In this document: positions 3,435 through 29,188 of the stretch, one piece after another
Numbering within the stretch: the stretch's first letter is position 1
How the letters are laid out: each line of letters starts with the position of its first letter
Source: an uncultured Bacillales bacterium
Lineage (GTDB): Bacteria; Bacillota_I; Bacilli_A; RF39; UBA660
DNA length: 33,715 nucleotides
NCBI GenBank assembly: GCA_946402785.1
Contig: CAMIXP010000001.1
Span: 1-33,715 of the forward strand
Reading direction: 5' to 3'
Translations under genes and position numbers: made by a program
The notes under the pieces: model-generated
Seen by the model: the letters and a program-made list of their open reading frames with translations, nothing else
What the model was told of the DNA's origin: nothing
The model's database searches: none

Positions 3435-3510
3435 TGGAGCGAACGGGGGGAATTGAACCCCTATCACAGCCTTGGCAAGGCCGTATTCTAACCATTGAAC
3501 CACGTTCGCA
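3435..3510 (-). tRNA. tRNA-Gly (GCC)
   Basis: The reverse complement GCGAACG...CGTTCGC-T-CCA folds as a cloverleaf. Anticodon stem is CGGCC/GGCTG with loop TTGCCAA. The T-loop is TTCAATT. CCA is encoded. Confidence 0.9.
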
Positions 3511-3517
3511 AAAAAAA

Positions 3518-3591
3518 TGGAGGGGCCTACCGGATTTGAACCGGTGATCAGGGTGTTGCAGACCCACGCCTTACCGCTTGGCTAAAGCCCC
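3518..3591 (-). tRNA. tRNA-Cys (GCA)
   Basis: Reverse complement is GGGGCTT...AGGCCCC-T-CCA. Anticodon loop is CTGCAAC. T-arm is ACCGG-TTCAAAT-CCGGT. Discriminator is U73. CCA is encoded. Confidence 0.9.
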
Positions 3592-3667: not shown

Positions 3668-4854
3668 CATAAATCATAAATATTCTGATAATTGTATTTT
3701 AATTCATTATACTCTACGATTTTTCTTAATCCTAAATCTTCTTGATAAAGATATAAGGTATCGTCTTGTAGAAGAATCCATTCTTTTTCTTTTATTTTCC
3801 ACTCTACTACATTTTCTAAGTTGAATTGTTCTACTCGATTCATTCCTTTTATTTGACTATAGAAGGAATTGGATTCTTGGAAATAATAGATATTTTCTTC
3901 TAATTGGATGTTTTCAGATTCAGATATTTTCTTATTTTTAACAGGATTCCCTGTGAAAAATTGTTTTTTGGGAAAGAAATCTGTAATCTTCATGGTTTCT
4001 TTTTGATTATCTTTGATTATGATATATCCATTTTCAGGATTTCCTACTTCTAGTAATTCTTCTTTTTTAACATTCAATGTATACTGTTTCTTTTTCTTTT
4101 GATCGGTAATATAGATAATATCCCCTACTACTCCATTAATATAGGAATTTTTCTCTATTTTATCTTTTAAAGTAATCACTTTGTATTTTCCTTTTTTTAA
4201 GTCATAGCAATGGACTTTTTCAATTCCATTTACGGATGTATTTTCAAACATGACATAGTATCTTTTTGTTGTGGTTGCCATCAAATTATCATATAAATCA
4301 TAATCTAGGAATTTTTGATAAGAATTTTTATTTCTTTCTAAGATGATAATTCCTTTATAATCCCATAAGATGATTGCTTGATCATGAGGAATATTATTAG
4401 AATAAACTATTAAATTCTTATAATCTTGTTTGGTTTCACTTTCTTTAGATCCTTTTATTTTTTCTTTTTTCATGATTTTTTGAAAATCTTCATTTTCTTT
4501 TAGCATCTCATTGGATACTTGTATATTTCCTTTTCTGCAGTAGATTTGTTTTTCTTGGTTTTCTCGATAAGTAGGTATGATACAAGTTAGATCATTTTTC
4601 TTAATTGTTTTGATATTCGTAATGATTTTCCCTTTTTTATGAAGATCTGCTTTTAGAATATAGGAATACTCTTCTTTTCCTTTTTTCATGAAAAAAGTAT
4701 ATTGATGGTTTTTATTTTTTACTAAAAAAGATTCTTTTATATCATATCCATCTACTTTATAGGAAGTCTCTCTTTCTTTTAAAAAGGCTTTATAAAGAAT
4801 GGGTAACATCATAATGATGATAATTGTGATGATATATTGTTTATACTTTTTCAT
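3661..4854 (-). CDS. membrane-anchored hypothetical protein (beta-rich ectodomain)
   Basis: The track start is TTG. ATG at 4854 follows GGTGAGG and gives MKKYKQYIITIIIIMMLPILY, a TM anchor. The remainder is rich in K/Y/I beta-strand-like repeats. No family recognised. Confidence 0.7.
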   Translation of the reverse strand: MKKYKQYIITIIIIMMLPILYKAFLKERETSYKVDGYDIKESFLVKNKNHQYTFFMKKGKEEYSYILKADLHKKGKIITNIKTIKKNDLTCIIPTYRENQEKQIYCRKGNIQVSNEMLKENEDFQKIMKKEKIKGSKESETKQDYKNLIVYSNNIPHDQAIILWDYKGIIILERNKNSYQKFLDYDLYDNLMATTTKRYYVMFENTSVNGIEKVHCYDLKKGKYKVITLKDKIEKNSYINGVVGDIIYITDQKKKKQYTLNVKKEELLEVGNPENGYIIIKDNQKETMKITDFFPKKQFFTGNPVKNKKISESENIQLEENIYYFQESNSFYSQIKGMNRVEQFNLENVVEWKIKEKEWILLQDDTLYLYQEDLGLRKIVEYNELKYNYQNIYDLWK

Positions 4855-4896
4855 AAGCCTCACCATTATCATTATAGCAAACAAAAAGACTATTCT

Positions 4897-5949: not shown

Positions 5950-7539
5950 CTATTTTTCTACTCTATCGATATATTCTTCATAAGGAATTTGTCTATCAAT
6001 GATTTTTCCATCTTCTGTAATTTCAATGACACGATTGGCAACGGTTGCGTTTAATTCATAGTCACGCGTTGTGAATAAAATTTCTCCATCAAAATTACAT
6101 AATCCTTTATTTAAGGAAGTAATACTTTCTAGATCTAAGTGGTTTGTTGGTTCATCTAAGATTAAGAAGTTTGGTTGTTCTAGCATAATCTTTGATAACA
6201 TACATCTTGCTTTTTCTCCTCCAGACAATACATTTACTTTCTTAAATACATCGTCTCCTGAGAATAACATTCTTCCTAAGAATCCTCTTAATACGGTTTC
6301 ATCTTTAATATCATAGAAAGAACCAATCCATTCCATAATATTTTTTTCGGATTGGAAATATTTTGTATTATCTTGTGGAAGATATCCAGGATTTATTGTT
6401 TTTCCCCACTCAATGGTTCCTTTATCATACTTTTCTAATCCTGCTAAGATATTAAATAGAACTGTCTTTGCCATATCGTCTTTTGCAAGGAAACAAATTT
6501 TATCTCCTTTTAATACGGTAAAGGATACTTTATCTAATATTTTTTTACCATCGATTTCTTTGGTTAAGTTTTCTACTTTTAAGATTTCTTTTCCTGCTGG
6601 TTTTTCAATCTTAAAGTCAATAAATGGATATTTTCTACTACTTGGTACAATTTCATCTAATTCAATCTTTTCTAACATTTTCTTACGAGAGGTTGCTTGT
6701 TTTGATTTAGATGCATTTGCTGAGAATCTTGCGATGAATGCTTGTAGTTCTTTTATTTTTTCTTCTTTCTTACGATTAGACTCTTTCATTTGTTTTTGTA
6801 GTAAAACACTTGATTCATACCAGAAGTCATAGTTTCCAATATATAGTTTAATCTTGGTATAATCAATATCACAAATATGTGTACATACTTTATTTAAAAA
6901 GTGTCTATCATGGGAAACAATAATAACGGTATTATTAAAATTAATTAAGAATTCTTCTAACCAACGAATCGCTTCTAAGTCTAGCGAGTTGGTTGGTTCA
7001 TCTAATAGAAGAATATCTGGATTTCCAAATAAGCTTTGTGCTAGTAAAACTTTAACTCTTAGTTTTACTGGTATATCTTTCATTAATTGATAATGAACAT
7101 CTTCTGGTACTCCTAAATTGTTTAATAATTGAGCTGCATCTGGTTCTGCATTCCATCCATCTAATTCCATGAATTCTGCTTCTAGATTGGCTAGCTTCAT
7201 ACCATCTTCTTCTGAGAATTCTGTTTGTTGATACATCTTGTCTTTTTCTTCCATAATCTCATATAATTTGGTATTTCCCATAATAACGACATCTATTACT
7301 CTTTTTTCATCAAATTGATAGTGATCTTGTTTTAAGAAAGAAATTCTTTCTCCTTTTGATACAGTAATTTCTCCTGTCGTTGTCTCTAATTCTCCACTTA
7401 AAAGCTTTAGAAAAGTAGATTTTCCTGAACCATTCGCTCCTATTAATCCATAACAGTTACCATTGGTAAATTTTAAATTAACATCTTCAAATAAGGTTCT
7501 CTTTCCAAACTTTAAACTTACATTACTTACTTGTATCAT
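5950..7539 (-). CDS. ABC-F family ATPase (two tandem ABC domains, no TM domain)
   Basis: Two Walker A motifs (GANGSGKST and a degenerate second one). Two signature/Walker B pairs (LLLDEPTNSLD, LSGGEKARCML...LILDEPTNHLD). A K/E-rich interdomain linker is present. ATG follows GAGGTGA. Confidence 0.9.
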   Translation of the reverse strand: MIQVSNVSLKFGKRTLFEDVNLKFTNGNCYGLIGANGSGKSTFLKLLSGELETTTGEITVSKGERISFLKQDHYQFDEKRVIDVVIMGNTKLYEIMEEKDKMYQQTEFSEEDGMKLANLEAEFMELDGWNAEPDAAQLLNNLGVPEDVHYQLMKDIPVKLRVKVLLAQSLFGNPDILLLDEPTNSLDLEAIRWLEEFLINFNNTVIIVSHDRHFLNKVCTHICDIDYTKIKLYIGNYDFWYESSVLLQKQMKESNRKKEEKIKELQAFIARFSANASKSKQATSRKKMLEKIELDEIVPSSRKYPFIDFKIEKPAGKEILKVENLTKEIDGKKILDKVSFTVLKGDKICFLAKDDMAKTVLFNILAGLEKYDKGTIEWGKTINPGYLPQDNTKYFQSEKNIMEWIGSFYDIKDETVLRGFLGRMLFSGDDVFKKVNVLSGGEKARCMLSKIMLEQPNFLILDEPTNHLDLESITSLNKGLCNFDGEILFTTRDYELNATVANRVIEITEDGKIIDRQIPYEEYIDRVEK

Positions 7540-7593
7540 TGAATCACCTCGAAACTTCTTATATTTTACCGTAAAAACAAAAAAAAGACAAGT

Positions 7594-8268
7594 TTAACTC
7601 ATCTTCTTTACTAGTTCTTTCACGTTTTCTTGTCCTCTTAATAATTCAATTAAAAAGCTACTTGTTCTTTCATCCATATCTTTTAGACTTAATAGTTTTT
7701 TTACTTCATTAATCGTTGCTTGTGGAACACGAGATTTTCTTAAATCTGCTGCAATTAATTCTGTAATTAACAAGTGAATTTGAAATTGATTTAATTTTTC
7801 TAGACTCTTTGTATTTCCTAATTCTAAACGGCTATATCCTGCTGGATTAACTAAGTATATTTCTCCATTATATAAAACATATCCTGGATTGATTCCATTT
7901 AATAATACTTTCTTTTGACTTAATGTCTCATTGTCTCGTTCTAAAGCAGCGACACCTTCAATTAATTCTCTTTTTGGTGCAATTGTAATTCGTTTACCAG
8001 AACCTTTTTGTGTTACTAATTTCATAGAATAGCCTTTAAATAAAGAACTATTATAAATTAATAATTGTCTTGGTAATAAGATTCTTGCTGTCGATATTCT
8101 TGTAAAATAATCGGCTGTTTGTTTGTCGATTGGTTCTTCTCCGTCTCTAAATACACGAATGGCCATATTCTTATATCGATATACATCTCCTGCTTTGGTA
8201 CTAGGAGTAAAACTTATTTTTTTCAAGTTGGACAATTCGATTTCTTGATTTCCTAATCGATATCCCAT
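7594..8268 (-). CDS. small protein-kinase-like fold protein with degenerate catalytic motifs
   Basis: Aligns by eye with the 30816..31514 product: GDVYRY..MAIRVF vs GQEGVCYLL...VIKLL, and VLLNGINPGYVLYNGEIYLVNP vs ILIQDFHPGNMIYDGERFKIIDT. The Lys, catalytic Asp, Asn and metal-binding Asp positions are R, G, Y and N here. Confidence 0.45.
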   Translation of the reverse strand: MGYRLGNQEIELSNLKKISFTPSTKAGDVYRYKNMAIRVFRDGEEPIDKQTADYFTRISTARILLPRQLLIYNSSLFKGYSMKLVTQKGSGKRITIAPKRELIEGVAALERDNETLSQKKVLLNGINPGYVLYNGEIYLVNPAGYSRLELGNTKSLEKLNQFQIHLLITELIAADLRKSRVPQATINEVKKLLSLKDMDERTSSFLIELLRGQENVKELVKKMS

Positions 8269-8307
8269 ATATTCACGTCTCCCTTTGCAATTAGTTATTA
8301 TAACATA

Positions 8308-8898
8308 CTATCTATAAAAGTTTGAAACAAATTTTGCAAATCCATATAGAATAATAGAACTTTTGTTAATGGCAAAGCTCTTACCGATTGCTTTTCCCCC
8401 GATTGTTAATGCTGCAATCATAGCTGCTACTGTTAGTGTGGTAGGTAATACTGGAAAACTTGCTTCCTTAATTAATATAGCTGCGATGGTTGTTCCTGCA
8501 GCTCCTGAAATGATACCACAAATATCTCCTATGACGTCACAACAGAAACTAGATACTTTATCAGCACTTTTCTTAAACTTCACTGCAACAGAAGCTCCTT
8601 TTACTTTTCTAGAACTCATGGAATGAAAGATAGCTTCATCAGCTGTTGTAACAGAAACTCCAATAATATCAAATAGAATACCTAATAATATAAATAATAA
8701 GGTAATGATAATCCCTGCCCATAATGGAAATTTAGGAATCGTCATTTCTGATATAAAAGACATAAAGAAAGAGATCATAAAGGAAACAATTAAGACGATT
8801 ATAATCCATTTCCAATCTACTTTTTCTTTCTTAATTTTTTCTTTCTTTTTGGTTACTTCTATTAAATTTTTTAATTCACTTTGTTTTTTTTCTTTCAT
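8308..8898 (-). CDS. four-TM membrane protein, DUF21/CNNM-TM-like (about 21 kDa)
   Basis: Four hydrophobic helices. The segment TTADEAIFHSMSSRKVKGASVAV...VIGDICGIISGAAG resembles a stand-alone CorB/CNNM DUF21 core. Its start overlaps the upstream stop (ATGA), indicating translational coupling. Confidence 0.4.
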   Translation of the reverse strand: MKEKKQSELKNLIEVTKKKEKIKKEKVDWKWIIIVLIVSFMISFFMSFISEMTIPKFPLWAGIIITLLFILLGILFDIIGVSVTTADEAIFHSMSSRKVKGASVAVKFKKSADKVSSFCCDVIGDICGIISGAAGTTIAAILIKEASFPVLPTTLTVAAMIAALTIGGKAIGKSFAINKSSIILYGFAKFVSNFYR

Positions 8899-9206
8899 TT
8901 AACTCTCCTTGGATCTAATACAATTACTTGGTCATCATCTTTAAACATTTCTTGTAGTTCATCTAATTGTTGTTCTCTTTGTTTATCTTCTTCATCAAAA
9001 CGACTATAGGTTACATGAATGGTTGGATTTGCTTTTAGATTCTCTACCATCTGACGTAGTCTTCTTTCTGATACAAATGCTTTCATAGCAAAGGGACGAA
9101 TAGACATTACTTTTTGTCCTTTATCTGCTCTTTCCCATTTGATTTCTTCATATAAATCTCTATCGTCTTGTCTTCCTTGTATGATTTCAAATCTTTTATC
9201 GTCCAT
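8895..9206 (-). CDS. hypothetical charged cytoplasmic protein, 103 aa
   Basis: ATG follows AGGTGAG. The stop overlaps the start of the next gene. No family recognised. Confidence 0.7.
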   Translation of the reverse strand: MDDKRFEIIQGRQDDRDLYEEIKWERADKGQKVMSIRPFAMKAFVSERRLRQMVENLKANPTIHVTYSRFDEEDKQREQQLDELQEMFKDDDQVIVLDPRRVK

Positions 9207-9232
9207 TGTTTCTCACCTGGTTTCATTATATC

Positions 9233-9863
9233 AAAAAAAAAGTAGATTCACTACTTTTAATTTTTTTGGAATTGTTTGGCTATCGCAATAGTAAACTTTG
9301 AGCCTTAGGTCAAGTAGGATTTCCCTAATTCTTACAAGTTCGTTACCAAACTTGCGGTTCCCCTTTACTAGAATTAATATGGTGTTACCATTCCATACGA
9401 CTTGATTACCACTTAGTGCCCACTGCAATCCTATTTTGAAATACATCCTAGGAGATTTCCTCTCCAACACTTTATTCCTAATTCTTTTTTGCAAAAACAA
9501 TTTCAAAGCGCAATACGAAATAGAAAGTGGCCGCTTCCTATTTGTAAGTTCGTTTATCCCAATGTTTCCACTCAAGACAGGCTACGCTGCACATAGCTTG
9601 CGCCACATTACAGGTTTTATCCCATTTCGTAACAAATCATCAGATGTTGTCCGTATAGATTTGCCACAAGAATGGGTCTCCACGAATAGTGGGTCGTGAT
9701 TCATATGCCATTATGAGTCGCCCAAAATTCTCATCTCCAGCATCCACCCCAAACTGGGCGTAAGAAGCAGACACCAAAGGTTTCACAGATATGCCCTTTA
9801 ACGATCTTTTAAACTCGTCTTCATAATAAAGTAATTGACTAGAATAATGTGCCATCAATTACG
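9233..9863 (-). ncRNA. large (~0.6 kb) structured non-coding RNA, class unresolved (OLE/ROOL-type candidates)
   Basis: Bounded by a perfect promoter (9870-9898) and an AAAAGUAG-ugaau-CUACUUUU hairpin plus U-run (9233-9259). Visibly more G+C-rich than the flanks. Many nested helices are present: 9855-62/9831-38; 9461-65/9451-55; and 9427-32/9316-21 enclosing 9370-76/9326-32 enclosing 9349-54/9335-40. The only ORFs lack an SD. Confidence 0.7.
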
Positions 9864-9869
9864 ATAAAC

Positions 9870-9898
9870 ATTATAGCATATTTTCAAAAAAATGTCAA
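9870..9898 (-). promoter_or_regulatory. consensus sigma-A promoter of the large ncRNA
   Basis: Minus strand reads TTGACA (9893-9898), a 17-nt spacer, then TGcTATAAT (9870-9878). Both hexamers are perfect and the extended -10 TG is present. Confidence 0.8.
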
Positions 9899-9913
9899 AT
9901 GTGTCAAGTGAAA

Positions 9914-12193
9914 TTACTCTCCTAAAAACTTTCTTAAAACATCCATATCTTTATGAGTTTGTTCTATTAATTCGTCGTAACTATCTTTTACAAATTCAAT
10001 TCGATTATCACGACTTAATAGTTCTTGATTGTATGCTAAATCTGCAAGTCTTGTCATACCCATATAACGGGCATCTCCTTTTAATGCGTGTGCTACTGCA
10101 CTATAATTTTTCATATCTTCTTTATATAGATATTCTTCTAGTTTCTCTAGTTTATTTGGATAGTCTTTTAAAATATCTTTTGCTGTTTCACGATACATAT
10201 TCATATCTACTAATGTCTCTAATGCTTTCTTTAAATCAAATCCATTTTCTTCTAGATAAGCAATATTTCCAGTTGGTTCTATTTCATGAGTCGTTGTTTC
10301 TTCTACTGGTTCTAATTCTTCTACTTCTTCTTTTTTAGAAGTTTCTTTTCCTAGAAAGTCTAGTAATAATTCTTCTAATAAAATCTTATCAATTGGTTTT
10401 GATAGATATCCATCAAATCCCATCAATATGTATTTTTCTTTTACTCCGGATAAAGCATTTGCGGTTAAGGCAATGACAGGTGTTTTGAAATCTTCTTTTT
10501 TCTTTAGTTTTTCTAATACTTCAATTCCTGTCATTTCTGGCATTTGATCATCTAATAAGATTAAATCATAATTGTTGTTTTCTTCTACTTTATCCATACA
10601 TTCTTGTCCACTGGATGCGAAGTCTAGTTTTAAATTGTATTTTTGTAGAAGTCTCTTCGCAACTTTTAAGTTTACGCTATTATCATCTACAATTAATACT
10701 TTTTGTCCATTTCCTTTGAAGTTTTCTCTTGTGATGGATGGATCTGTTTCTTCTAATTCTTCTAAGGATTTATTTAAAATATTCTGTTTGATTTTAATTT
10801 CAAAAGTAGTTCCTTCTCCATAGGTACTATCTACATGGATGGTTCCACCCATTAAGTCTACTAATTTTTTGGTTAAAGCAAGACCTAGTCCTGTACCTTC
10901 TACATTGATATTTTTCTTAGTATCGAATCGTTTGAATTTCGTAAATAATTTCTTTAAGTCTTCTTCTTTGAATCCCATTCCTGTATCTTTTACACGAATG
11001 ATTAAGATTCCTGTTTCTTCATCTAACTTATCGAAATCCATTTCTAATTGAACATACCCTTTTTGCGTATACTTTATAGCGTTCGTTAGAAGGTTAACGG
11101 CTACTTGTTTAATTCTTACATAGTCTCCATATAATACAGGAGGAATATCATTACTATATTTATGAATAAATTGTAGTTTTTTGTCCCCTATTCTTCCTTG
11201 GGTCATGGTTACTAAATATTTATATACTTTTGGTACTCCATATTCTACATTAACGATTTCAAATCGATCGGATTCAATTTTTGAAATATCTAGAATTTCA
11301 TTAACTAATTCTAGTAAAGTATCCGATGCACTTGCGATATCTTCAATATCTTCTTTTACTTCTGGTTCTAATGGTTGTTCCAAAAGACTGTGTGAGAATC
11401 CAATAATCGCATTTAATGGAGTTCTTAATTCATGAGACATATCGGATAAGAAATCTGTTTTTGCATGGTTTGCTTTTTCTGCATCATTCTTTGCTTTTCT
11501 TAATTCTTTTACGATTTCAAAGTCTGGATTTTCATAAGCAAATACCGAAAAATACATGATTGTAATACAAAATACTAAGAATGCTGTAATTAATAGAAAT
11601 GCTGGGTTAAATAATTGAATCATGGTTGCTAAACCACCAAGAGCTGTTACGGATACAATTGGTACAATCTTTCTTGCTGGTAAGTCTTTTGCTCTTACAA
11701 TTAATAAAGACATCCATACTAAGATACAGAATCCGCCAATAATATAAGTAATGGTAGTAGCTGGTCCATAACTATACATGATATGAGCATCTTTCACATA
11801 AATATAAGTTGGTGCTAAGATAATAGCCATACTGATAATTACAATTAAATAGAAGATGATACTACGAATGGATTTATATTGTTTTATTTTTGTTTCATTA
11901 TCACTTACATTGGTAATAATAATGGCATATTCTGTATAGATTAATGCAAAACAAATTAATGTTATTAAGTAGCCTTTTGCTGAAAAAATTGCAAAAGCAG
12001 AATTTGGGTTTTCAAAGGCAGTTGCAATGGATACCATATCAAAAATCGCACTAAAAATTCCAACAATTACTAAATTGCGGAAGATGTAGTTTTCGGCACT
12101 TTCTAATTTCTTCTTACAATAGAATACAATTCCTATTAATAAGATATAAAGAAGTGAAATGAATTGGATAAAAATATTCTCATATAGTATCAT
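9914..12193 (-). CDS. hybrid sensor histidine kinase (multi-TM sensor, HisKA, HATPase_c, REC, HPt)
   Basis: About 7 N-terminal TM helices. H-box is SHELRTPLNAI. N-box is LLTNAIKYT. G-boxes are DTGMGF and GTGLGLAL. Receiver motifs are LIVDDN...LILLDDQMPEMTG...LSKP. C-terminal HPt is AHALKGDARYMG. ATG follows AAGGGG. Confidence 0.9.
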   Translation of the reverse strand: MILYENIFIQFISLLYILLIGIVFYCKKKLESAENYIFRNLVIVGIFSAIFDMVSIATAFENPNSAFAIFSAKGYLITLICFALIYTEYAIIITNVSDNETKIKQYKSIRSIIFYLIVIISMAIILAPTYIYVKDAHIMYSYGPATTITYIIGGFCILVWMSLLIVRAKDLPARKIVPIVSVTALGGLATMIQLFNPAFLLITAFLVFCITIMYFSVFAYENPDFEIVKELRKAKNDAEKANHAKTDFLSDMSHELRTPLNAIIGFSHSLLEQPLEPEVKEDIEDIASASDTLLELVNEILDISKIESDRFEIVNVEYGVPKVYKYLVTMTQGRIGDKKLQFIHKYSNDIPPVLYGDYVRIKQVAVNLLTNAIKYTQKGYVQLEMDFDKLDEETGILIIRVKDTGMGFKEEDLKKLFTKFKRFDTKKNINVEGTGLGLALTKKLVDLMGGTIHVDSTYGEGTTFEIKIKQNILNKSLEELEETDPSITRENFKGNGQKVLIVDDNSVNLKVAKRLLQKYNLKLDFASSGQECMDKVEENNNYDLILLDDQMPEMTGIEVLEKLKKKEDFKTPVIALTANALSGVKEKYILMGFDGYLSKPIDKILLEELLLDFLGKETSKKEEVEELEPVEETTTHEIEPTGNIAYLEENGFDLKKALETLVDMNMYRETAKDILKDYPNKLEKLEEYLYKEDMKNYSAVAHALKGDARYMGMTRLADLAYNQELLSRDNRIEFVKDSYDELIEQTHKDMDVLRKFLGE

Positions 12194-28060: not shown

Positions 28061-28137
28061 GGCGCCGTTGGTGAAGTGGTTAACACGCTAGTTTGTGGCA
28101 CTAGTATGCGTGAGTTCGATTCTCACACGACGCCCCA
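28061..28137 (+). tRNA. tRNA-His (GUG) with encoded G-1 and CCA
   Basis: Anticodon stem is CTAGT/ACTAG with loop TTGTGGC. T-arm is GTGAG-TTCGATT-CTCAC. The extra 5' G pairs with C73. There is one C-A mismatch in the acceptor stem. Confidence 0.85.
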
Positions 28138-28149
28138 GTTTGAAATTAA

Positions 28150-28176
28150 AGAGTCTTTTTTAAAGATTCTTTTTTT
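28150..28176 (+). terminator. terminator after tRNA-His
   Basis: AGAGTCTTT-ttt-AAAGATTCT (9 bp including one G-U pair) followed by T6. Confidence 0.75.
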
Positions 28177-28225
28177 GTTAATATTTGGTATAATAGTATA
28201 TATAAATATAGATAAGGAGAATCAT

Positions 28226-29188
28226 ATGAATTATAAGAAAATAGTGGTTGCTGGTGGCGGTGTTTTAGGAAGTCAAATTGCTTTTCAATCAGCTTATTGT
28301 GGATATGATGTAACAATATGGTTAAGAAGTGAAGATAGTAAAACAAGAACACAGCCAAAACTAGATGCATTAAAAAAGAATTATATTGAAACAATTGAAT
28401 CCCTAAATCCTCAAGATGAAAATAATTGGGCAAGGGGAATTGCGGATATCGATCATTTTAATAAGGAAGAATGTTTAGAAAAAGTAGAAAGAGCTTACAA
28501 TAGTATTCGATTAGAAGTTGATATGAAAGAAGCTATGAAAGATGCTGATTTAGTCATCGAATCCATGGCTGAAATTAAAGATGAAAAGATTCAATTCTAT
28601 CAAACATTGGCTCCCTTTTTAGAAGATAAAACCGTTCTTGTAACAAACTCTTCTACTCTATTACCATCTACATTTGCCAAGTATACAGGAAGACCAGAAA
28701 AATATTTATCTCTTCATTTTGCAAATACAATATGGATTAAAAATACAGCTGAGGTAATGGCTCATGATGAAACTGATAAAAAGTATTTTGATGAAATTAT
28801 GGAATTTGCTACCAGTATTCGCATGTTACCACTTCCTGTATTAAAGGAAAAATCTGGATATCTATTAAATTCTATGTTGGTACCATTCTTGTTAAGCGGT
28901 ATGGATTTATTAACGAATGGAATATCAGATGCTAAAAGTATTGATACTGCATGGAAAAGAGGTACTGGTGCACCAAAAGGACCATTTGAGATTATTGATA
29001 CTGTAGGATTAACAACTGCCAAAAATATAGTTGAACAATACCAAAAAGTTCCTGGATTAATGAGTCCATTATTAAGGAAAATGATGTTACCTTATAATTA
29101 CAAGGGAATGTTAAACATGTTAAATCAATATATTGAGGAAGGTAAATTAGGGAAATCATCCGGGGAAGGATTTTACAAATACAACTAA
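28226..29188 (+). CDS. 3-hydroxyacyl-CoA dehydrogenase family protein (NAD-binding)
   Basis: ATG 28226 follows AAGGAGA, and TGgTATAAT is at 28186-28194. The track ORF start at 28076 lies inside the tRNA. Rossmann motif is VVAGGGVLGSQIA. The C-terminal GKSSGEGFYKY is typical of the 3HCDH family. Confidence 0.85.
   Translation: MNYKKIVVAGGGVLGSQIAFQSAYCGYDVTIWLRSEDSKTRTQPKLDALKKNYIETIESLNPQDENNWARGIADIDHFNKEECLEKVERAYNSIRLEVDMKEAMKDADLVIESMAEIKDEKIQFYQTLAPFLEDKTVLVTNSSTLLPSTFAKYTGRPEKYLSLHFANTIWIKNTAEVMAHDETDKKYFDEIMEFATSIRMLPLPVLKEKSGYLLNSMLVPFLLSGMDLLTNGISDAKSIDTAWKRGTGAPKGPFEIIDTVGLTTAKNIVEQYQKVPGLMSPLLRKMMLPYNYKGMLNMLNQYIEEGKLGKSSGEGFYKYN

Follow-up and report, generated by a model that had tools for sequence, protein, structure and literature searches.

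An OLE RNA gene and oapA separated by a small orphan gene in an uncultured low-G+C Bacilli lineage

Layout of the locus and its transcription signals

The window, i.e. the whole stretch of DNA analysed here, comprises 33,715 nucleotides of contig CAMIXP010000001.1 from an uncultured Bacillales bacterium (GCA_946402785.1). It contains a gene for OLE RNA, ole, and, downstream on the same strand, oapA, encoding a membrane protein of 196 amino acids. Between the two lies a small gene that we call X. We consider it highly probable (approximately 95%) that the locus encodes an OLE ribonucleoprotein system. OLE RNA and OapA make up a known bacterial RNA-protein system, to which this locus adds another member. 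Gene X is the sole non-standard element of the locus; the canonical ole-oapA arrangement lacks it. The features are listed below in the direction of transcription.

9870..9898, minus strand: ole promoter; 12/12 consensus match with the TG present, and a -10 position kept in 24 of 24 aligned OLE loci
9260..9871, minus strand: OLE RNA gene of the full-length type (Rfam RF01071); covariance-model match, covariation and MFE z-score
9233..9258, minus strand: intrinsic-terminator-like hairpin and T-run; sequence, fold energy and hairpins at the same place in relatives
9225..9233, minus strand: putative promoter of the X-oapA pair, an extended -10 element TGaTATAAT; conserved position, from which the function is presumed
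9213..9218, minus strand: Shine-Dalgarno sequence AGGUGA of gene X; sequence, with GGTGA conserved in related loci
8895..9206, minus strand: gene X, encoding a soluble, highly charged protein of 103 amino acids; an ORF of an orphan family adjoining oapA
8903..8910, minus strand: Shine-Dalgarno sequence AAGGAGAG of oapA, within the 3' end of X; sequence
8308..8898, minus strand: oapA, encoding the 196-aa membrane protein; homology to the gene after OLE across Bacillota, and hydropathy

The RNA gene occupies an interval bounded by the start of the 103-aa ORF (9206) and the end of a histidine-kinase ORF (9914). Its G+C content is 0.38-0.42, against 0.26-0.32 in the flanks. The stop codon of X and the start codon of oapA overlap as ATGA (8898-8895, from the ORF coordinates). 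Both the elevated G+C content and the coupled pair of a 103-aa and a 196-aa protein had been noted in a first-pass annotation of this DNA, and both hold.

OLE RNA is hosted by Bacillota, typically by anaerobes or extremophiles. The closest OapA/OLE loci come from metagenome-assembled genomes labelled Bacilli, Mollicutes, Tenericutes or Erysipelotrichaceae bacterium, several of them from ruminant or gut source sets. Where individual related loci are named below, they carry our locus numbers (L001 and so on).

The ole promoter is made up of TTGACA (9898-9893) and TATAAT (9875-9870) on the minus strand, with a 17-nt spacer ending in TGc, as the first-pass annotation had read it. It is the sole 12/12 site within positions 7500-10500, while promoter-like sites in total (17) showed no excess over the 13.8 +/- 4.3 expected by chance. 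In each of the 24 aligned loci, TGnTATAAT stands equally far from the RNA core. Transcription probably starts at approximately 9862-9865, and the predicted primary transcript extends from approximately 9863 to approximately 9233, roughly 630 nt, both ends being predicted from the sequence.

At the other end we located the terminal hairpin and U-run that had also been claimed. The hairpin, AAAAGUAG-UGAAU-CUACUUUU, spans 9258-9238, and a nine-T run (9241-9233) begins within its 3' arm. The hairpin RNA has an MFE of -7.9 kcal/mol and a stem with 2 G-C pairs. A terminator scan requiring at least 3 G-C pairs did not report it, because its stem has fewer. In relatives, too, a hairpin and T-run occur at this position, with stems that differ in sequence. 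We predict that this is a weak but positionally conserved intrinsic terminator.

Directly after the T-run there is a TGaTATAAT (9225..9233) without a good -35 element. A TGnTATAAT is kept at this place in the window and in L001, L007, L133, L132, L135 (TGTAATAAT), L143 and L144, and it also precedes oapA in the relatives L064, L066 and L068, which lack X. We suggest that it may serve as an internal promoter of the X-oapA pair.

Identity and fold of the RNA

The first-pass annotation had proposed an OLE-type locus with oapA and, as alternatives, a ROOL-like RNA or an entirely new class. A scan of the whole window at the Rfam gathering thresholds gave OLE and three tRNAs, and no other family. 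The OLE model (RF01071; gathering score 50) was matched over model positions 1-616 of 616 with 399.2 bits (E 4.5e-114), and the interval 9260-9871 is a full-length OLE RNA. Since a known family fits the interval from end to end, it is not a new RNA class. ROOL, GOLLD, HEARO, raiA, RNase P, tmRNA, 6S, SRP and group II intron models gave no above-threshold match in the window; the last five of these RNAs had already been judged missing by eye. Full-length OLE matches of 363-407 bits were also obtained for the related loci L001, L006, L007, L133, L135, L136, L137, L139 and L143.

The conserved OLE blocks GGGAAAUCCUACUUGACCUAAG, ACUAAGUGGUAAUC, GAGGAAAUCUCCUAG and GUGGAGACC are all found in the window RNA and show little or no variation in an alignment of 24 related loci (A3). 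The first of them, GGGAAAUCCUACUUGACCUAAG, is the OLE 3' pattern with which 120 OLE loci were retrieved from GTDB genomes. In Halalkalibacterium halodurans, the protein OapB docks on hairpin P13, at a GNRA tetraloop with a bulge two pairs below (PMC7936274). Compared by eye with that description, P13 of the window RNA reads GUAUGG-AA-UG-GUAA-CA-CCAUAU, with GUAA as its GNRA loop and the bulge below it, and is a candidate OapB site. The P13 loops of the relatives are GUAA, GAAA or GUGA in the 24-locus alignment. A k-turn flanking P5 is the site of OapC (PMC9723947), and the segments flanking P5, UGUGAAAC ... GAUGAG, are found in the window RNA.

Covariation, which had been put forward as a check on the RNA call, was examined in A3, a MAFFT alignment not fitted to structure. 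Over 152 mapped pairs, 89.4% of the cells were paired, against 39-48% when the partners were slid. Compensatory changes with both sides altered were present in 102 of the 152 pairs, and none of 500 shuffles matched the observed values. The predicted 631-nt transcript has an MFE z-score of -3.6; together with the full-length Rfam match this bears out the multiple helices seen by eye. The more distant members L062, L032, L069, L088 and L091 carry deletions like those of reduced OLE variants.

These results bear on two other readings of the interval. That it encodes a new large RNA class, or an RNA of the ROOL, GOLLD, HEARO or raiA type, is refuted by the outcome of the Rfam scan, in which the OLE model was matched in full and only tRNAs were found besides, and by the covariation of the OLE fold; we regard it as extremely improbable. 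A second reading takes the interval as protein-coding, through an ORF of 114, 87 or 72 aa, with incidental structure. Such ORFs do exist (114, 87, 72 and 40 aa by mechanical calling), and a gene caller placed a 67-aa ORF inside the OLE RNA of the related contig L143 (384-587). The candidate ORFs overlap one another on both strands, however, the RNA model scores 399 bits, and pairing is kept in the 102 helix pairs that are altered on both sides. The substitution pattern across relatives is that of paired RNA and contradicts protein-like codon periodicity. Covariation thus refutes the coding reading, to which we assign a negligible likelihood, and the earlier statement that the interval holds no credible CDS stands.

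OapA and gene X

Of the 120 GTDB OLE loci, sampled across Bacillota, 108 have enough downstream DNA to be informative, and in 104 of these the gene directly after OLE is a homologue of oapA. In phmmer comparisons, the 196-aa protein matched the ORF after OLE in these 104 loci with E-values of 1e-18 to 1e-91, in genera that include Lederbergia, Alicyclobacillus, Clostridium, Acetobacterium and Neomoorella. In all, 7305 homologues were found. On this sequence homology, the 196-aa protein is OapA. Its Kyte-Doolittle profile contains four hydrophobic segments, two of them strong (residues ~26-54 and 52-87) and two weaker (125-144 and 146-168), in line with the four-TM protein first described here. 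The N-terminus is Lys-rich, and D77, G80, D121, G124, D125, S131, G132, T165, K169, G172 and K173 are invariant in a 17-sequence alignment. The start of oapA follows the OLE 3' pattern by 406 nt, against 19-267 nt (median 70) in the 104 reference loci.

OapA proteins have a size of about 21 kDa, four transmembrane helices and conserved charged residues. According to the literature, OapA of H. halodurans is a four-helix membrane protein; as a dimer it binds OLE RNA, which it anchors at the membrane. There, by the same accounts, the OLE particle helps the cells to withstand cold, excess Mg2+, short-chain alcohols and poor carbon sources. The membrane-associated ribonucleoprotein, the RNA dimer and the stress phenotypes have been documented in H. 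halodurans and only a small number of others (PMC12265935, PMC12286853).

The X protein (103 aa) has a pI of 5.3 and a GRAVY of -1.14. Its family comprises 17 clusters among 1.84 billion proteins, and a metagenome scan with the X alignment A1 added five loci. X had no match in Pfam, NCBIfam, PHROG or PADLOC; a Pfam search with 22 family members gave nothing shared or meaningful at E <=1, and searches of PDB sequences, with X alone and as a 22-sequence profile, gave chance matches only (E >0.7). AlphaFold2 yielded a poor model from 11 sequences (pLDDT 51) and a usable one from 22 (pLDDT 76.7). Foldseek found no relative of the latter in PDB (best E 8, TM <=0.2) or in BFVD, and a scan of viral contigs gave no X. 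X represents an orphan family without a recognisable RNA-binding or other domain.

We read the context of X in approximately 15 distinct lineages, with 22-99% identity to the window protein. In every lineage with a long enough contig, oapA is found downstream of X. OLE is located directly upstream of X in the window and in L137, L139/L007, L001-4, L005/6, L133/4, L135, L136, L142, L143 and L144. X was not found in any of the 120 sampled GTDB OLE loci.

In brief, the locus would work as follows. A consensus sigma-A-type promoter of its own would drive ole, with transcription ending at the weak intrinsic terminator. The product would be a structured RNA of ~630 nt that has the conserved OLE fold, P13 hairpin included. 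In this lineage X would have been inserted ahead of oapA, behind the terminator/promoter region of ole, and would be translated just before oapA by way of the ATGA overlap.

Every examined X adjoins oapA on its upstream side, one of them with a further ORF between, from which we infer joint expression of X and OapA. X is a candidate accessory, specific to this lineage, of OapA or of the OLE particle, which we regard as its most likely role. We tentatively propose, at odds that we put clearly below even, that X is an unrecognised clade-specific subunit or regulator of the OLE particle, made together with OapA and binding OapA or the OapA-OLE interface. Alternatively, X may be a hitch-hiking, lineage-specific ORF without a role in the particle, residing under weak selection in a permissive and well-expressed spot, to which we give a nearly even chance. 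The rate of evolution fits such an ORF, as X has an omega of 0.35-1.0 (1.7 in the closest pair) in genome pairs that give 0.05-0.27 for OapA; between the window and its nearest relatives, on the other hand, dN/dS of X is 0.05-0.23, and the ORF is intact in 17 of 17 clusters. In the OapA tree, L103 and L025 lack X yet are nested inside the X-bearing clade, and unrelated ORFs occupy the same intergenic spot in L138 (216 aa) and L136 (179 aa, between X and oapA). The OLE alignment columns that track X are a few positions in a variable helix, with no sign of an X-specific RNA site, and the missing domain points the same way. Against hitch-hiking, X stays directly upstream of oapA down to 22-37% identity, even in L129-131 and L140, which have a sequence other than OLE upstream of X. 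Its Shine-Dalgarno sequence is conserved, and its spacing to oapA is tight or overlapping.

The contigs of L129-131 and L140 are too short to separate a loss of ole from an insertion like that in L138.

OLE RNA is among the largest bacterial RNAs of still unknown biochemical function, and each protein tied to it is therefore a potential clue. The locus mainly adds an ordinary OLE/OapA example from an uncultured low-G+C lineage of Bacilli where ole seems to be a transcription unit of its own. Should X prove to be a partner, this would show that clade-specific proteins are recruited by the OLE particle, and pull-downs could use X as a short and soluble handle. X would then also be the first partner of OLE, OapA aside, with a gene tied to the ole-oapA locus. 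Its leverage on the question of OLE function is limited, however, by its fast evolution, by the lack of a recognisable domain and by its dispensability in close relatives.

Comparison with known OLE systems

The locus was compared with a reference set for OLE and OapA consisting of Rfam RF01071, Puerta-Fernandez 2006, Block 2011, PMC11332333 and PMC12265935. It resembles the systems of H. halodurans and other Bacillota in matching the whole RNA model, with the conserved blocks and helices and with the GNRA loop and bulge of P13. As in those systems, a four-helix membrane protein of ~200 aa from the same family is encoded downstream on the same strand. It differs in the 103-aa gene between ole and oapA, since the papers give oapA as the usual immediate neighbour. 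The small hairpin at positions 424-435 of the Rfam model is missing in the clade of the window, and the host belongs to a low-G+C, uncultured gut-type Bacilli lineage. In H. halodurans, OLE RNA is made as part of a long operon, whereas ole, with a consensus promoter before it and a terminator behind it, appears here to be transcribed as a unit by itself. Isoprenoid and nucleotide-metabolism genes are commonly clustered with ole. The neighbours that the papers describe as commonly clustered with it are absent from the window.

Reduced OLE variants have been described from gut symbionts, variant 1 from TANB77 and variant 2 from RF39 (Fernando & Breaker 2024, PMC11332333). The hosts are alike in being uncultured and low in G+C, and records related to the window are labelled 'Bacilli', 'Mollicutes' or 'Tenericutes bacterium'. 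Unlike the reduced variants, the window RNA is full-length and has the long central hairpin. Variant 1 is often without the OapB site in P13, which is present here, and variant 2 is without P7 and P8 (PMC11332333).

OapA has a reported weak homology and predicted structural similarity to the DUF21 membrane domain of the Mg2+ transport proteins MpfA, CorC and CNNM (PMC11332333). The window OapA differs from these proteins in having no CBS or CorC domains. It had no Pfam CNNM match, and a 17-sequence OapA profile (A4) gave no PDB match. A JGI label on a fragment of the window OapA reads 'CBS domain containing-hemolysin-like protein'; support for the term 'DUF21-like' for this protein comes from that label and PMC11332333, the sequence-level searches being without a match.

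X may also be set beside OapB, a small beta-barrel KOW protein, and OapC (YbxF), of the L7Ae family, the genes of neither of which were found within the window. Pfam searches with X matched neither KOW nor L7Ae, and PDB gave no match by sequence or Foldseek. X shares with both a size of ~100 aa, solubility and a genetic tie to OLE. OapB and OapC occur widely outside OLE-bearing species and, to our knowledge, are not encoded beside ole, whereas X is found only adjoining oapA.

The OLE RNA and its downstream partner

The window encodes an OLE RNA (Rfam RF01071) on the minus strand, which carries all genes of the ole-oapA neighbourhood.

Features of the ole-oapA neighbourhood and tRNAs of the window
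3435-3591, minus: tandem tRNA-Gly(GCC) and tRNA-Cys(GCA)
5950-7539, minus: ABC-F type ATPase (two ABC_tran and ABC_tran_Xtn), one or two genes downstream of oapA
7594-8268, minus: 224-aa protein, directly after oapA
8308-8898, minus: oapA, 196 aa
8898-8895, minus: ATGA, overlap of X stop and oapA start
8895-9206, minus: gene X, 103 aa
9218-9213, minus: AGGUGA, Shine-Dalgarno sequence of X
9258-9233, minus: terminator-like hairpin 3' of the OLE RNA, AAAAGUAG-UGAAU-CUACUUUU and a nine-U run, -7.9 kcal/mol
9871-9260, minus: OLE RNA, 399.2 bits (threshold 50), E 4.5e-114, model positions 1-616 of 616
9898-9893 and 9875-9870, minus: ole promoter, TTGACA, 17 nt ending in TGc, TATAAT; the single 12/12 site in 7500-10500
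9914-12193, minus: hybrid sensor histidine kinase (HisKA, HATPase_c, receiver, Hpt, multi-pass N-terminus), immediately upstream of ole
28062-28137, plus: tRNA-His(GUG)

A gap of about 700 nt separates the start of the 103-aa ORF (9206) from the end of the hybrid histidine kinase gene (9914), and its G+C content is 0.38-0.42 against 0.26-0.32 in the flanks, a difference already seen in the first-pass annotation. That annotation called a large structured ncRNA here, either part of an OLE-type RNP locus with oapA or a ROOL-like or new RNA class. An Rfam scan of the whole window at gathering thresholds reported OLE as the sole family besides three tRNAs (Gly, Cys and His), which decides for the former. 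The scan gave no match to ROOL, GOLLD, HEARO or raiA, which had been named for checking alongside OLE, nor to RNase P, tmRNA, 6S or group II, whose hallmarks had been found missing by eye.

The Rfam consensus structure, as aligned to the window sequence by the scan, was transferred to 24 OLE loci (8 with and 16 without X) aligned by MAFFT from sequence alone. Standard pairs fill 89.4% of cells over the 152 pairs counted, compared to 39-48% in controls with the 3' partners slid by 1-3 columns, and both-sided changes occur in 102 pairs compared to 34-51 in the slid controls. The observed pairing values were reached by 0 of 500 shuffles. The fold is kept by compensatory changes, and therefore the mechanical ORFs of 114, 87, 72 and 40 aa inside the ole interval (the first three at 9231-9575, 9436-9699 and 9640-9858) were rejected as genes. 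In the related locus L143 a gene caller annotated an equivalent 67-aa ORF within OLE (384-587), so spurious OLE-derived "hypothetical proteins" are probably present in protein databases. The predicted transcript starts at about 9863, finishes with the U-run and is about 631 nt long, with an MFE z-score of -3.6.

The perfect TTGACA-N17-TGcTATAAT promoter and the terminal hairpin with U-run described from the sequence are both present. Promoter-like sites in 7500-10500 do not exceed chance in total; the ole promoter is credible because TGnTATAAT lies equally far from the conserved 5' core of the RNA in 24/24 aligned loci. The terminator stem has just two G-C pairs, which explains why the hairpin is missing from the terminator-scan list. 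Relatives carry a hairpin and T-run at the equivalent spot with differing stem sequences, as would be expected for a working terminator.

The 196-aa protein belongs to no Pfam or NCBIfam family and has 7305 homologues. Orthology was assessed by synteny, searching GTDB representative genomes for the conserved OLE 3' segment GGGAAANCCTNCNNGACCTAAG. This gave at least 120 loci; those listed come from Bacillaceae, Alicyclobacillus, Clostridium, Acetobacterium and Neomoorella as well as numerous MAGs. Of the listed loci, 108 have 800 nt or more of downstream sequence, and 104 of these 108 encode a homologue of the 196-aa protein (phmmer E 1e-18 to 1e-91), starting 19-267 nt (median 70) downstream of the OLE 3' pattern. 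The protein has four hydrophobic segments, and D77, G80, D121, G124, D125, S131, G132, T165, K169, G172 and K173 are invariant across the phylum homologues. OapA is described as a four-helix membrane protein and the commonest immediate downstream neighbour of ole (PMC12265935, PMC11332333). By synteny, homology and hydrophobic segments, all matching this description, the protein is OapA, as first proposed. Its earlier label "DUF21-like" found no backing at sequence level, with no Pfam CNNM match and no PDB match with the OapA profile; it rests on the "weak homology" to DUF21 reported in the literature (PMC11332333) and on a JGI label for a fragment of the window OapA.

In this clade a glucosaminidase-like gene and then a variable gene precede ole, and (X), oapA, (a variable 224-aa gene) and the ABC-F ATPase follow it. 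No other neighbour of ole-oapA is as conserved as this ATPase, which shows 84-91% identity across 13 related loci with and without X. The 224-aa protein has no family match; homologues (21-58% identity) follow oapA in L139, L103, L066, L005, L135 and L077, and not in L001 or L133. The histidine kinase has no counterpart in related OLE loci, save a weak match in L047, so the upstream neighbour of ole is variable. The tRNA-His overlaps the listed GTG start of a 3-hydroxyacyl-CoA dehydrogenase ORF (370 aa, 28076-29188), and the true start must therefore be further downstream.

Gene X between ole and oapA

The window oapA begins 406 nt past the OLE 3' pattern, compared to at most 267 nt in all 104 listed reference loci, because X fills the extra space. 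The X protein is soluble and rich in charged residues (pI 5.3, GRAVY -1.14), and its gene overlaps oapA at ATGA, in line with the charged, translationally coupled protein first described. A word-indexed search found 11 X clusters (51-98% identity), and only 17 came out of a profile search over 1.84 billion representative proteins. X was absent from all listed OLE loci of the GTDB set (at least 120; tblastn) and from viral contigs in a viral-contig scan. Judged from sequence, X is a real, conserved gene.

Family members are about 80-126 aa long, with the exception of P0143 (150 aa, N-terminally extended) and P0151 (488 aa, weak match). They share an N-terminal F-x-V-I-x-G, central S-E-R-R-L-R and V-T-Y, and a C-terminal E-L-x-E-M-F-K-D-D-x-K-V-I-V-F-D-P. 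X had no match in Pfam, NCBIfam, PHROGs, PADLOC or PDB sequences. Its AlphaFold2 model, moderately confident (pLDDT 76.7 with 22 sequences), has two short strands and two long helices, with no Foldseek relative in PDB or BFVD. X was therefore rejected as a homologue of the OLE partner proteins OapB (KOW) and OapC (L7Ae).

In P0143 the usual N-terminus is replaced by about 57 extra residues that include two hydrophobic segments; if real, this extension would anchor X in the membrane, a hint of a membrane-proximal role. P0147 and P0148 each carry the C-terminal motif (E-L-x-E-M-F/L-x-D ... V-x-V-F-D-P) twice, and the unrelated protein upstream of X in L129 (2-289) and L130 (2-199) ends with a similar E-L-x-x-M-F-S-D-E string. 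The likeness may be due to chance or mark a short interaction motif.

Contexts of X (WIN, window locus; L numbers, related loci or contigs)
X directly followed by oapA: WIN, L137, L141, L139/L007, L001-4, L005/6, L140, L132, L133/4, L135, L142, L143, L144, L129, L130/131
Full or truncated OLE directly upstream of X: WIN, L137, L139/L007, L001-4, L005/6, L133/4, L135, L136, L142, L143, L144

These contexts cover about 15 distinct lineages, whose X proteins share 22-99% identity with that of the window. Wherever the contig extends, oapA lies 4-23 nt after X or overlaps it, except in L136, where a 179-aa ORF (4317-4856) separates the two. In L138, whose X is 96% identical to that of the window, a Cys-rich 216-aa ORF (547-1197) separates OLE from X. 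Neither ORF had a Pfam-independent PHROG or PADLOC match; the ole-oapA junction in close relatives has accepted other, unrelated ORFs.

Non-OLE sequence lies just upstream of the X promoter in L129-131 and L140. A protein gene, terminator and promoter precede X-oapA in L129-131 (L129 1-357, L130 1-267), and unrelated sequence replaces the OLE 3' end in L140 (1-91). These contigs are short and could reflect ole loss or relocation, or an insertion as in L138.

The junction in X-bearing loci reads OLE 3' end, hairpin, T8-9, TGnTATAAT, about 10 nt, GGTGA and the ATG of X. This hairpin also occurs in the nearest relatives that lack X (L103, L066, L064, L068), often together with the extended -10, and oapA follows directly, so X appears to have been inserted between oapA and a promoter that already served it. 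In more distant relatives the hairpin is absent and oapA abuts OLE. Two transcription units are suggested, ole by itself and X together with oapA, and some transcription may run through the weak terminator.

A possible role of X in the OLE system

We give roughly one chance in three that X is an accessory subunit of the OLE system. This would fit the X-oapA adjacency, which outlasts very deep divergence of X, an ORF that is always intact and coupled or nearly coupled in translation to oapA, and dN/dS values of 0.05-0.23 in close comparisons with the window X. The same observations speak against X being a hitch-hiker ORF, a reading that we consider somewhat more probable. In other pairs X has a dN/dS of 0.35-1.0 (1.7 in one near-identical pair) against 0.05-0.27 for OapA in the same genomes, the same spot has taken other ORFs, and no OLE alignment column tracks the presence of X. 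Furthermore, a neighbour-joining tree of OapA places two X-less loci, L103 and L025, inside the X clade, which implies loss of X.

Comparison with known OLE systems

Reduced OLE variants have been described for the TANB77 and RF39 gut clades (PMC11332333); the window RNA differs from these in being of the full-length type. The P13 GNRA loop and bulge, which bind OapB in Halalkalibacterium halodurans (PMC7936274), are kept. The single element lacking is a small hairpin at model positions 424-435 (window 9435-9445 region), which would separate the GAGGAAANCUC hairpin from the large 3' domain. It is deleted in the window and all 23 close relatives aligned, and kept in Caloramator (L021).

Neither oapB nor oapC occurs in the window, and the genes reported to cluster commonly with ole are absent from it as well. 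The OLE literature searched does not mention a gene lying between ole and oapA. X merits note for OLE specialists and alone leaves the overall picture unchanged: OLE/oapA is a known system, the window locus is a further member of it, and the tie between X and oapA is the single unreported feature.
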